The notes beneath the pieces were generated by a model. The model did not search any database. It was not told where the DNA came from and worked only from the letters and a program-made list of their open reading frames with translations. From contig JAFUNF010000012.1 in NCBI GenBank assembly GCA_017473085.1, positions 29,415 to 93,414 on the forward strand: 64,000 nt of DNA, read 5' to 3'. Position 1 is the first letter of the stretch. The number at the start of each line of letters is the position of its first letter. Origin of the DNA: Clostridia bacterium. GTDB taxonomy: Bacteria; Bacillota; Clostridia; Oscillospirales; CAG-272. Shown piece by piece: positions 7,879 through 41,060 of this stretch. The translations under genes and the position numbers were made by a program.

Positions 7879-7907
7879 TTGACAAGTAAATACTCCTATG
7901 ATATAAT
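7879..7907 (+). promoter_or_regulatory. Consensus sigmaA promoter of the tRNA pair
   Basis: TTGACA-17-TATAAT with extended TG and an upstream A-tract. Confidence 0.85.
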
Positions 7908-7928: not shown

Positions 7929-8004
7929 GGCGGAATAGCTCAGAGGCTAGAGCATCCGGTTCATACCCGGCAGGTCATAGGTTCAAATCCCATTTCCGCC
8001 ACCA
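7929..8004 (+). tRNA. tRNA-Met(CAT), elongator-like
   Basis: GGCGGAA/TTCCGCC acceptor stem, loop TTCATAC, GTTCAAATC, encoded CCA. Confidence 0.93.
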
Positions 8005-8009
8005 TATAC

Positions 8010-8084
8010 GGCCCGTTGGTCAAGCGGTTAAGACACGGCCCTTTCACGGCTGTAACATGGGTTCGATTCCCGTACGGGTCACCA
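8010..8084 (+). tRNA. tRNA-Glu(TTC)
   Basis: GGCCCGT/ACGGGTC acceptor stem, loop CTTTCAC, GTTCGATTC, encoded CCA. Confidence 0.95.
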
Positions 8085-8085
8085 A

Positions 8086-8131
8086 CACAAACAAAAATCG
8101 AACACTTTCGGGTGTTCGATTTTTGTTTGTG
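8086..8131 (+). terminator. Terminator after the tRNAs
   Basis: CACAAACAAAAATCGAACAC...GTGTTCGATTTTTGTTTGTG inverted repeat. Confidence 0.8.
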
Positions 8132-8300
8132 AATGAAGCACACCTACGGTGTATTAAGACGCTTTTGCTAATGAAGTCGGCTTCGCCTAATGAAGTCGCT
8201 TCGCTAATTTGTTTGTGTGCTTCGCTTCATACGAGCAAAGTGAGTGCTTCATTGTTGCGTAGCAACTGCTTCATATTGGCAAAGCCAATACTTCATTAAA
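8131..8300 (+). repeat. Ladder-type structured element: 4 ATGAAG+hairpin units, then 4 CTTCAT units with hairpins
   Basis: ATGAAG at 8133, 8171 and 8190 (ATTAAG at 8153); CTTCAT at 8225, 8247, 8269 and 8291 (22-bp period). Confidence 0.75.
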
Positions 8301-8311
8301 AGGAGTAGATT

Positions 8312-8383
8312 ATGAAAGACGATAAATTATCAGCTCAATCTATGGATTTTGCTGTTTCTATTATTGAAAGCAAAATAAAATGA
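8312..8383 (+). pseudogene. Collapsed four-helix-bundle (TIGR02436/Avd-like) gene remnant, MKDDKLSAQSMDFAVSIIESKIK*
   Basis: AAAAGGAG RBS; the N-terminus matches the S-x-DFAV-x-I start I recognise from four-helix-bundle proteins; stop after 23 codons, then a hairpin. Confidence 0.6.
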
Positions 8384-8483
8384 AGCAAGGCTAATTTTCA
8401 ACCTTGCTTAGCAAAAGACGTGTCATTTCTCTAAGACAACACACCGCCCACTTTCCCCACAAAAATCGGATAAAGGTTGAATA

Positions 8484-9332
8484 ATGAAAAGTAAAAAATC
8501 TAACAAAAGAAAAAGCAAACAACAAACAGATAAAGAATACTCAAAAGCTACTATATTAGCTCTAATTGGTATTGTTTTGCTTTGTATTCCTATAGTTCTC
8601 TTTATTCTATTAAACTATTTATGGTTAGCGGTTCCTGAAAGTGCGTGGATTGTAATTGGATTTGTCGGTTCATTTGTTATAGGAGTAGGACTTTTTAATG
8701 CTATAATGGGGCTTGGTAAAGCTTCACTTGGAATAAAATTTACACTTATTTGCTCACTTTCTGGCATTATTTTGATAGCGATAAGCGAGCTTCTTATGTA
8801 TAATTCTCATTTATTCAATCAGGATTTAGTGTCATATTACTTTCTTACATTGCTGTTCTGCGTTGGCACTTTAATCTCATATCCCATTTTCAGATACGGA
8901 ATCAATACTTATTTGCGTAAAACTAGAGGTCTTAGCCAAACGAACATAAATAAGCATAAAAAAGGCAAAAAAAATTACTGGTGGTATGAAGAAATACATA
9001 AAGAATTTGGCATTGGAAAGCTATATCATTTGAACAAAGCATATACTATTCTCTTTTTAGTTAATTTCTTTTCTAATCTTATTTTTGGTTTTTTCAAATT
9101 TGCATCTATCTTTACTTGTTCGTTCAGTTTAATACTATATGTTTTTACAGCTATAATTGGATTTTATGGTATGAGACAATACCATGTTGACGAACATGGA
9201 AGTACATTCGTGCTATTCGCAAGAAATAGCAGTGGAAAAATAGATTCTTCACTTTTTGATTTGTTTTTCCTTGCATTTCCCTGTGGCATGGCATATGCAC
9301 ACATTACGGCGATCATCGGACTTTGGAATTAA
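8484..9332 (+). CDS. Hypothetical multi-pass membrane protein
   Basis: 282-aa ORF with about 7 hydrophobic segments; no recognised motif. Confidence 0.7.
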   Translation: MKSKKSNKRKSKQQTDKEYSKATILALIGIVLLCIPIVLFILLNYLWLAVPESAWIVIGFVGSFVIGVGLFNAIMGLGKASLGIKFTLICSLSGIILIAISELLMYNSHLFNQDLVSYYFLTLLFCVGTLISYPIFRYGINTYLRKTRGLSQTNINKHKKGKKNYWWYEEIHKEFGIGKLYHLNKAYTILFLVNFFSNLIFGFFKFASIFTCSFSLILYVFTAIIGFYGMRQYHVDEHGSTFVLFARNSSGKIDSSLFDLFFLAFPCGMAYAHITAIIGLWN

Positions 9333-9365
9333 TTAAGCTTTAAACGCTTTTTCGTTTAAGGTTAT

Positions 9366-9456
9366 CAACTGCTTCATATTAACGCAGTTAATGCTTTATT
9401 AAAAGGATTTCTTCCATAAATACATCAAAGCAAGGCTGAAATTCAGCCTTGCTTTT
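9366..9456 (+). repeat. Degenerate copy of the ladder-element 3' end plus its downstream hairpin
   Basis: CAACTGCTTCATATT..TTAAAAGGA matches 8263-8304; AAGCAAGGCT..CCTTGCTT matches 8383-8409. Confidence 0.65.
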
Positions 9457-9485
9457 CTTATATCTCTTGTTTTGTTAATATAAAA

Positions 9486-9514
9486 TGGAGACAAGGAACC
9501 GTCCCCTGTCTCCA
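9486..9514. repeat. REP-like palindrome TGGAGACA-AGGAACCGTCCCC-TGTCTCCA
   Basis: 8-bp perfect stem with a GC-rich loop in AT-rich intergenic DNA. Confidence 0.5.
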
Positions 9515-40726: not shown

Positions 40727-40778
40727 CAAAAAAGCTTGACGGACTTAGCGTGTTATCCTTAACGGAGAACACGCTAAA

Positions 40779-40997
40779 ACTAAGTTTGCCCTCGGGGCAA
40801 GTGAAGTTATCTGCGATAGTGAAGTTCACTTTGTGAGTGAAGTTTCGCCTGCGGCGAAGTAGGGGTTCCCCGAGACGAATGAAATGAGGCTTGGGGGTTC
40901 CCGAAGTGGTGGGTAAACTTAACTTCACTGCAAGCGTAAGCTACGCAACTTCACTGTGCATAGCACAACTTCACTTTTGCGATAGCAAAAACTTCAC
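40779..40997 (+). repeat. Ladder-type structured element (GTGAAGT+hairpin units, then AACTTCAC+hairpin units) with a nested 41-bp insert
   Basis: GTGAAG at 40801, 40819 and 40837; CTTCAC at 40923, 40949, 40969 and 40992. Confidence 0.75.
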
Positions 40998-41060
40998 AAA
41001 CAGAAAAAGAGAGAACATTTCGGTTACTACGAACCGAAATGTTCTCTCTTTTTTTGTTTG
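40997..41060. terminator. Long bidirectional terminator
   Basis: AAAAAGAGAGAACATTTCGGTT...AACCGAAATGTTCTCTCTTTTT. Confidence 0.85.

Follow-up and report, generated by a model that had tools for sequence, protein, structure and literature searches.

What is the array of short repeated motifs and mini-hairpins that lies between a pair of tRNA genes and a very short open reading frame (ORF) in the genome of a gut Clostridia bacterium, and why does it end on the ribosome-binding site (RBS) of that ORF? The array, here called a ladder, occupies positions 8132-8296 of a 64,000-nucleotide stretch of contig JAFUNF010000012.1 (assembly GCA_017473085.1), the whole of which we call the window. A preliminary description, made from the sequence alone, had taken the ORF for a collapsed four-helix-bundle (4HB) gene and the ladder for its cognate structured RNA or single-stranded DNA. 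We established that a compact cassette is found again and again in Oscillospirales (Acutalibacteraceae-type gut metagenome-assembled genomes, MAGs) and that positions 8086-8409 are one of its copies, in a decayed state. Its order is terminator-type hairpin, two-armed ladder, promoter and/or RBS, PF05635/TIGR02436 gene, terminator. In addition, the ladder arms share the architecture of the Rfam motif Gut-1 (RF01706), and Gut-1 and the 4HB gene co-occur across genomes. We give an even chance to the reading that the locus is a decayed selfish cassette of the intervening-sequence (IVS) protein type, whose repeat array would be the cis partner of a pentameric 4HB protein. The parts of the locus are as follows.

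7879-7907, + strand: promoter-like site of the tRNA pair, TTGACA-17-TATAAT with TG (12/12 matches).
7929-8084, + strand: tRNA-Met (7929-8004), then tRNA-Glu (8010-8084), from tRNA annotation.
8086-8131, no strand assigned: terminator-type hairpin at the tRNA/ladder junction, with an A-run before and a T-run after it; part of the conserved module.
8132-8209, + strand: left arm, with ATGAAG at 8133, ATTAAG at 8154 and ATGAAG at 8171 and 8190, a short hairpin after each, read from the sequence; hairpin H1 covaries.
8210-8224, + strand: centre, where GTGTGCTTC (8215-8223) is complementary to GAAGCACAC (8135-8143), from an inverted-repeat search; the helix covaries.
8225-8296, + strand: right arm, with CTTCAT at 8225, 8247, 8269 and 8291 and hairpin spacers whose loops are GNA or AAA on this strand (loop census); hairpins H6 and H7 covary.
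8300-8383, + strand: RBS AAGGAG (8300-8305) and the 23-aa remnant ORF (8312-8383), codons 1-19 of which are the 5' end of a PF05635/TIGR02436 gene.
8383-8409, + strand: 3' end and terminator hairpin of the deleted gene, 96% identical to positions 2299-2326 of L135, the syntenic locus of a related species.

The junction hairpin is a perfect 20-bp terminator-type inverted repeat (8086-8105 with 8112-8131). The ladder follows it and tRNA-Glu, outside any rRNA, with both arms upstream of the ORF and the ORF outside the inverted pair. The four CTTCAT motifs start 22, 22 and 22 nt apart, an exact spacing with hairpin spacers that had been noticed before and that we recovered once in the 64-kb window and in 0/100 dinucleotide-preserving shuffles. 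On the left arm, four ATGAAG-type motifs with hairpins had been claimed; all four are present, but only three are exact, since the one at 8154 reads ATTAAG. The spacer hairpins ACACC-TAC-GGTGT, GGC-TTC-GCC, GTTGC-GTA-GCAAC and ATTGGC-AAA-GCCAAT are all in place. Folded as RNA, positions 8128-8300 reach -60.8 kcal/mol (z = -4.77), and 0/200 shuffles are as stable. The longest complementarities are not nested rung by rung: 8132-8141 matches 8244-8253, and 8135-8143 matches 8215-8223. The AAGGAG adjoins the last CTTCAT, the ORF reads MKDDKLSAQSMDFAVSIIESKIK*, and no + strand promoter-like site is predicted inside 8131-8311.

The identity of the ORF was settled by comparison with two intact relatives. 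Firstly, the C11 paralogue is 96% identical to the window along 360 nt that take in tRNA-Glu, the ladder and the ORF as far as codon 19, and carries an identical copy of the 8086-8131 hairpin. Its ORF is intact (117 aa) and scores 108.5 bits against TIGR02436 and 99.1 bits against PF05635; the protein matches PDB 2RLD, an entry with five chains, at E = 1.1e-32. Secondly, L135 holds an intact 115-aa gene in the same order as the window, that is, promoter, tRNA-Met, tRNA-Glu, terminator, ladder, gene. The window remnant is 91% identical to this gene and retains its 3' end, and about 265-280 nt of coding sequence have been lost between 8367 and 8383. From the C11 comparison, 8383-8409 had been considered an inverted copy of the terminator; L135 shows it in gene orientation and we dropped that assignment. 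The helix motif RxxxSxxxNxxE is conserved in the 4HB family (PMC3936711). It lies in the part deleted from the window ORF and is kept in the C11 paralogue as RSGTSIGANIRE; the window ORF is therefore a pseudogene remnant. Judged by these alignments, the ORF is an internally deleted PF05635/TIGR02436 gene, and the collapsed 4HB gene of the preliminary description is upheld. The family match expected of the peptide itself did not appear: a profile search of its 23 residues against NCBIfam and Pfam returned 0 families at E ≤ 10, an uninformative result because the peptide is too short. PADLOC matched the 4HB protein to no defence system.

We then asked how constant the association between ladder and gene is. 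When the 1.7-Mb genome was scanned by k-mers, 23 clusters emerged and 19 of them were accepted as ladders; two more found by eye bring the number to 21. The four clusters set aside are another repeat type at C17:2641 and three that look like chance (C3:207865, C6:4996 and C9:84021). The ladders belong to the motif families GTGAAGTT, (A)TGAAAT(C/G), ATATCATCA, ATGAAG and AACATCGTT. The genome has five intact TIGR02436 genes, and a ladder lies directly upstream of all five, each with a motif of its own (ATGAAG, TGAAAT, GTGAAGTT, AACATCGTT and ATATCATCA). One of these ladders, L004 (G000 C20:56304-56830), differs from the other four: its arms point apart (AACATCGTT, then AAYGATGTT), and about 90 nt separate it from the ATG. 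Among 41 genomes (this one and 40 relatives), 28 have the 4HB gene. Under a strict rule of 3+3 exact motif copies, a ladder was found upstream at 19 of 34 loci in the relatives; six more of the 34 have weaker ladder copies and four have heptamer arrays devoid of hairpins. In a set of 80 orthologous loci from named Oscillospirales MAGs (Acutalibacteraceae and 'Clostridia bacterium', from ruminant and other guts), 69 were usable, with at least 250 nt of upstream sequence, and a ladder was parsed at 67 of them. The tie between ladder and 4HB gene, which the preliminary description had proposed, is supported both in the genome and among orthologues.

The distance from ladder to gene falls into two classes. 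At 11 loci, the subfamily of the window copy, the last motif is 15-17 nt from the ATG, leaving no room for a promoter. At the other 56 it is at least 38 nt away, and 43 of these 56 contain a TGnTAnnnT motif. In two loci promoter-like sites begin at the ladder end, TTTACA-17-TATATT in L051 and TTGAAA-17-TATAAT in L114.

The ladders show structure conserved by compensatory change. An arm consists of 3-5 copies of a family-specific 6-9-nt motif with short covarying hairpins between them, and the two arms are facing inverted copies. Contiguous stems of at least 5 bp are present in 162 of 269 spacers, against 14 after shuffling, and 191 of the 269 spacer sequences are distinct. In an alignment of 27 ATGAAG ladders, three local hairpins, H1 on the left arm and H6 and H7 on the right, are 91.4% paired, with compensatory changes in 13/16 pairs; slid controls gave 30-49% pairing. 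These hairpins have 93 double-change cells, against 30.3 ± 4.4 in shuffles, and 0/500 shuffles reach 93. A long-range helix also covaries: the first left motif and the 5' strand of its hairpin pair with the centre (95.9% paired over the 27 ladders; 35 double-change cells against 14.4 ± 3.8 in shuffles), and an alignment-free check was run as well. This left-to-centre helix competes with the first hairpin and excludes the outermost rung, L1:R4.

Which strand, and which nucleic acid, forms these structures is addressed by the loops and wobble pairs. Loops are of the C(GNA)G or GNRA type on the CTTCAY strand and C(TNC)G on the other. DNA mini-hairpins of the d(GCGAAGC) type are very stable, and the ladder loops recall such hairpins. 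The gene-sense orientation of single arms points to RNA, but the GNA/GNRA loops lie on the opposite strand, and the active form may be RNA or single-stranded DNA. Wobble counts are small and mixed (AC 9 against GT 3 in H1, GT 8 against AC 2 in the right arm, GT 9 against AC 3 in the left-to-centre helix) and give no strand call. A strand test by spacer fold energy was rejected; the difference was due to dangling ends, not pairs.

The motif-hairpin alternation of each arm is that of a known Rfam entry. The RF01706 consensus reads UGAAAU-hairpin-GUGAAAU-hairpin-GUGAAAU-hairpin-UGAAAU, short hairpins with a repeated 6-8-nt linker between them, and ladder arms have this architecture and align to the model over its full length; the seed alignment includes GUGAUAU and AGUUAUAU variants like the ones found here. 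The window ladder (8132-8296) is itself too diverged, scoring 12.8 bits (E = 9.3), below the gathering cut-off of 50 bits. Among 18 ladder stretches scanned from the same genome, 11 arms in 10 stretches score 30-50 bits. Over the whole genome, RF01706 has 55 matches at E ≤ 0.05, of which four exceed the cut-off (59.8, 56.3, 51.2 and 50.1 bits). Long tandem mosaics of Gut-1-type arrays and other repeat modules were also seen (G000 C18:5359-5807 and C16:670-3877).

Gut-1 and the 4HB gene also go together from genome to genome. Among 151 genomes of the order, 55 have both, 10 Gut-1 only, 14 the 4HB gene only and 72 neither, an odds ratio of 28; the same comparison with Y1 transposases as a control gave 22/21/43/65, an odds ratio of 1.6 (p = 0.21). 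Copy numbers of Gut-1 and 4HB genes correlate as well (rho 0.81 in 41 genomes; 0.91 when each family is represented by a single genome, 16 in all). Kin genomes are not independent and the p-values therefore overstate the evidence, which on that account is carried by the contrast of the two odds ratios, 28 against 1.6.

The cassettes have a preferred site. Five of the 21 ladders in the genome stand 3' of a tRNA or tmRNA gene, at distances of 49-64 nt; 23 such genes were found in all. Of the 67 orthologous cassettes, 49 are no more than 120 nt 3' of a co-oriented tRNA or tmRNA gene (median 67; 15 kinds), 5 loci are too short to tell and 13 have no such gene nearby. In the orthologous modules a hairpin like that at 8086-8131 is found behind 15 kinds of tRNA. 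This terminator hairpin between tRNA and ladder often keeps the apex TTTGTC-tacc-GACAAA behind different tRNAs, and its outer stems covary (L035-L114). This constancy behind different tRNA species suggests that a bidirectional terminator hairpin travels with the cassette.

Gene-less arrays, whose motif families match those of the ladders at genes, are far commoner than gene-linked ones; they occur as single arms or as pairs, mostly just 3' of a co-oriented gene, and terminator hairpins flank them. Where arms are paired, 13 pairs face each other and 3 point apart; in the facing pairs each arm therefore lies 3' of one of two convergent genes. Six GTGAAGTT copies in the genome share a common unit of about 430 nt, and the five gene-less ones examined each lie between convergent, unrelated genes. 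The window contains one such array and, close to the main locus, a second cassette remnant.

40745-41060, no strand assigned: gene-less two-armed ladder of the GTGAAGTT family, with Gut-1 matches at 40777-40848 (41.2 bits, + strand) and 40943-41025 (30.3 bits, - strand), both below the cut-off; flank hairpin 40747-40775, left arm from 40777, inserted module 40862-40906, right-arm motifs at 40921, 40947, 40967 and 40990, terminator hairpin 41002-41058.
9363-9470, + strand: second cassette remnant, with CTTCAT at 9372, a hairpin and CTTTAT at 9394, fused to a gene 3' end and terminator, from matches to L135.

The 40745-41060 ladder is absent from the syntenic site in 17/17 related genomes examined. 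One of these 17, another species, has several copies whose identity to the left arm of this ladder is 95-96%, against only 72% for the flanking gene. The inserted module, of about 45 nt and of the GGGGTTCC...GGGGGTTC type, stands at varied places within homologous ladders and also adjoins single arrays (further copies at G000 C24:4624, C25:43123 and C20:30003); it appears to be a separate small repeat that nests in the arrays. In the second remnant, 9363-9407 matches L135 1911-1955 and 9407-9468 matches L135 2278-2340: the last 1.5 ladder units are kept, and the flank beyond the remnant resembles the one beside the intact C11 copy. The two cassette remnants bracket an ORF (8484-9332) for a 282-aa multi-pass membrane protein with no Pfam match, relatives of which in other genomes do not adjoin the tRNA pair. 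Further on, a hairpin repeat, GGAGACAAGGAACCGTCCCCTGTCTCC, at 9487-9513 recurs across the genome.

The protein family extends beyond this clade. Among 200 further genomes of the phylum, 36 have the 4HB gene, and at 20 of 26 loci in other families the ORF is enclosed, as in a classical IVS, by inverted short-repeat arrays (reverse-complement score of upstream against downstream sequence of at least 30, where non-cognate pairs average 16.3 with a 95th percentile of 25). The flanks of these enclosed ORFs are mostly 7-8-nt tandem repeat runs. An Rfam scan of 20 phylum loci placed 4 inside 23S rRNA genes and 1 inside an RNase P RNA gene. The four, L172, L179, L181 and L182, are classical 23S rRNA intervening sequences with a 4HB ORF, and their stems consist of 7-8-nt tandem repeats such as GGTTAGA TGTTAGA GGTTAGA. 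The fifth, L189 (G108:C1:402326-405649), has a PF05635 ORF and inverted heptamer arrays at 1247-2021 inside the RNase P RNA gene, the 367-position model being stretched over 775 nt.

How might ladder and protein work together? The mechanism that we propose, tentatively and with somewhat less than even confidence, is that the array acts in cis as the nucleic-acid partner of a toroidal homopentameric 4HB protein, with binding and mobility both conjectural. Several identical single-stranded motifs spaced by hairpins would offer a multivalent site for the 4HB ring, and four or five of them would suit a ring of five identical subunits. In such a selfish system, analogous to the transposase gene with its repeats in the REP systems discussed below, the gene-linked ladder could then serve as the 'master' copy; gene-less arrays would be its non-autonomous copies, and the bare heptamer runs of rRNA IVSs a simpler form of the same site. 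The window copy would be a dead master, its array intact and its protein gone. In its subfamily there is no promoter between ladder and RBS, and any expression would therefore need read-through from the tRNA operon.

Several observations weigh against this partnership. No catalytic or sequence-specific activity is known for the 4HB family. Ten of the 65 Gut-1-positive genomes have no 4HB match and 14 of the 69 4HB-positive genomes no Gut-1 match, and kinship among genomes, as said, inflates the p-values. The motif GTGAAG is common to very different 4HB proteins, and protein and motif may therefore simply be co-inherited. In most loci the promoter is downstream of the ladder, which is thus not part of the 4HB mRNA there. 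As regards movement, a search of 56 loci for a target-site duplication or an integrase-type direct repeat of the tRNA 3' end located 3' of the cassette found none, bar one 14-nt match that is probably chance. Finally, arrays in Gut-1 orientation are co-oriented with the ORF on their 5' side in 45 cases against 9 (32 against 7 for single arms), which a host-level RNA role explains with no protein partner.

That role is the alternative that survives best, although we think it unlikely. The arrays would be host-level REP-like repeats acting as RNA at the 3' ends of transcripts, in exonuclease protection, termination, or insulation between convergent genes or after tRNAs, and the 4HB gene would share their niche or hitch-hike and make no contact with them. 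Besides the co-orientation, it would account for the facing of paired arms (13 against 3), each 3' of a convergent gene, for the flanking terminator hairpins, and for the classification of Gut-1 as a likely non-coding RNA, 'human gut only', in the accessible text of Weinberg et al. (2010, PMC2864571). Array orientation tracks the upstream gene in 83% of cases and the GC-skew leading strand in 70%, which is the gene background (71%), and replication-strand bias is unsupported as the cause of array orientation. What a host RNA role fails to explain is the two-armed array directly upstream of the 4HB genes examined in the clade, the odds ratio of 28 for the 4HB gene against 1.6 for the transposase, and the presence, in every ladder, of the same family-specific motif on both arms; nor is the right arm before a 4HB gene 3' of any co-oriented gene. 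The host role and the cis-partner reading are not mutually exclusive.

In the preliminary description, each motif of one arm pairs with a motif of the other, and these rungs stack through four-way junctions into a long coaxial helix formed by a single RNA or single-stranded DNA. Minimum-free-energy folds do use motif-motif pairs (z = -4.8 and -5.7), RNAalifold retains L1:R4 and L3:R1, and in at least 12 motif families the left motif invariably complements the right one. Such complementarity is also expected from one protein reading both arms or from inverted duplication. The rungs predicted by RNAalifold are invariant within a family and show no covariation because the rung pairs never vary; no change on the opposite arm compensates for the degenerate motifs, ATTAAG in the left arm and CATCAT in the right; the helix that does covary, between first left motif and centre, excludes L1:R4; and 39 Gut-1-type arms in the genome have no inverted partner. 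We therefore gave up the single long helix, which now seems improbable.

That the ladder is an operator array of double-stranded DNA, used by the 4HB protein or by a host factor to control the adjacent promoter, is very unlikely. Such an operator would suit the majority class, where the last motif abuts the -35 hexamer (L051, L114) and TGnTAnnnT is found in 43/56 long-spacer loci. In duplex DNA, on the other hand, covarying hairpins serve no purpose, other copies space their motifs by anything from 20 to 26 nt, the arrays that lack a gene are found 3' of genes and not at promoters, and the subfamily of the window copy has no promoter at that place. Least credible of all is an IVS-type stem for RNase III excision from a stable-RNA precursor via tRNA-operon read-through: in other families, 23S rRNA and RNase P RNA genes do contain 4HB ORFs enclosed by inverted arrays, and RNase III excision is shown for the Coxiella IVS in the accessible part of PMC4990558, but here the inverted pair does not enclose the ORF, hairpins interrupt helices of only 6-9 bp, and a strong terminator separates tRNA and ladder.

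Returning to the selfish cassette with the array as cis partner of the pentamer, a broader and more doubtful extension can be drawn by analogy. PF05635 IVS proteins in general would be the element-encoded IVS factor that has long been sought, the pentamer reading 4-5 tandem motif copies (6-9 nt, specific to the family) and thereby propagating or maintaining both the cassette and the gene-less arrays. The motif copies could be bare heptamers, as in rRNA IVSs, or hairpin-spaced, as in Gut-1 arrays, and the whole would amount to a RAYT/REPIN-like partnership (see below) in which the protein is not of the HUH type and stable-RNA genes are favoured, either at their 3' flank or in their interior. 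PF05635 pentamers have solved structures and are found in rRNA intervening sequences and cas loci. For the IVSs of Coxiella, the accessible part of PMC4990558 describes heptamer repeats before the ORF, ORF decay by deletion and excision by RNase III; it reports a Xanthomonas homologue of the IVS protein as a toroidal homopentamer, calls IVS function and origin unclear, and cites an older idea that the ORF serves mobility.

The ingredients of the module are of known kinds, namely the Gut-1 motif, IVS-protein elements and REP-like repeats; new, as far as the literature searched shows, are their linkage, the two-armed form, the position 3' of tRNA genes and the genome-wide co-occurrence. The earlier label of an undescribed module must accordingly be narrowed: its arms share the Gut-1 architecture and heptamer repeats have been reported in the accessible part of the Coxiella paper (PMC4990558), while the link to the gene was not found in the literature. 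No prior connection between Gut-1 and IVS-protein genes appeared in the literature searched, outside of which lies the supplementary discussion of the motif in the Gut-1 paper (PMC2864571); the two-armed form, the tRNA 3' position and the co-occurrence were likewise not found in it. Two orphans are thereby joined, Gut-1, in Rfam since 2010 with neither organism, context nor function, and the PF05635 pentamer. What IVS proteins do, and by what route IVSs spread, can now be put directly to a binding assay, since the cognate and non-cognate sequences are defined. Annotation is concerned as well: dozens of arrays per genome, whose scores mostly fall a little short of the Rfam cut-off, can be taken for repeats of another type.

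Four known systems invite comparison. Repetitive extragenic palindromic (REP) sequences and REPINs, with their REP-associated tyrosine transposases (RAYTs), are dispersed extragenic hairpin repeats, often inverted doublets, with a gene-linked copy flanking the cognate gene; the repeat families are specific to their RAYT gene, and repeat and gene co-occur in genomes. The arrays described here share all of this: dispersed hairpin repeats, inverted doublets, a gene-linked copy, gene-specific families and genome co-occurrence. The linked gene differs, being of the PF05635 4HB pentamer family and not an HUH Y1 enzyme. The genome does have Y1_Tnp matches at other places (C17:2217-2549 and C28); its Y1_Tnp gene adjoins a hairpin repeat of another kind, and Y1_Tnp does not co-occur with Gut-1. 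AAGACA/TGTCTT units, related to GGAGACAAGGAACCGTCCCCTGTCTCC, cluster beside the Y1_Tnp (PF01797) ORF C17:2217-2549 (repeat region G000 C17:2217-2850), and together these look like a classical REP/RAYT pair distinct from the Gut-1 arrays.

The Avd protein of diversity-generating retroelements (DGRs), to which the preliminary description had likened the 4HB protein, is a four-helix-bundle pentamer that works with a structured RNA, and the likeness of fold holds. The setting does not: the reverse transcriptase profile PF00078 has no match in the genome, which is 87% complete, and this is therefore not a DGR Avd setting; template and variable repeats were not seen, and the protein matches PF05635 and 2RLD directly. 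With Gut-1 the likeness concerns one arm, three or four short hairpins with GUGAAAU-type linker repeats. As published, in the accessible text of PMC2864571, Gut-1 is a single motif from human-gut reads devoid of genomic context, whereas the arrays here are multi-copy, often inverted pairs, located 3' of tRNAs and genes, and tied to PF05635 genes. The rRNA IVSs of Leptospira and Coxiella, as far as the accessible part of PMC4990558 presents them, share with the cassette a PF05635 protein, tandem repeats before the ORF and inverted repeats; they too are regarded as selfish, with an ORF that decays by internal deletion. The window cassette differs from them in lying outside rRNA, in placing its ORF outside the inverted pair, in having repeats interrupted by covarying hairpins, and in being accompanied by many dispersed ORF-less copies.

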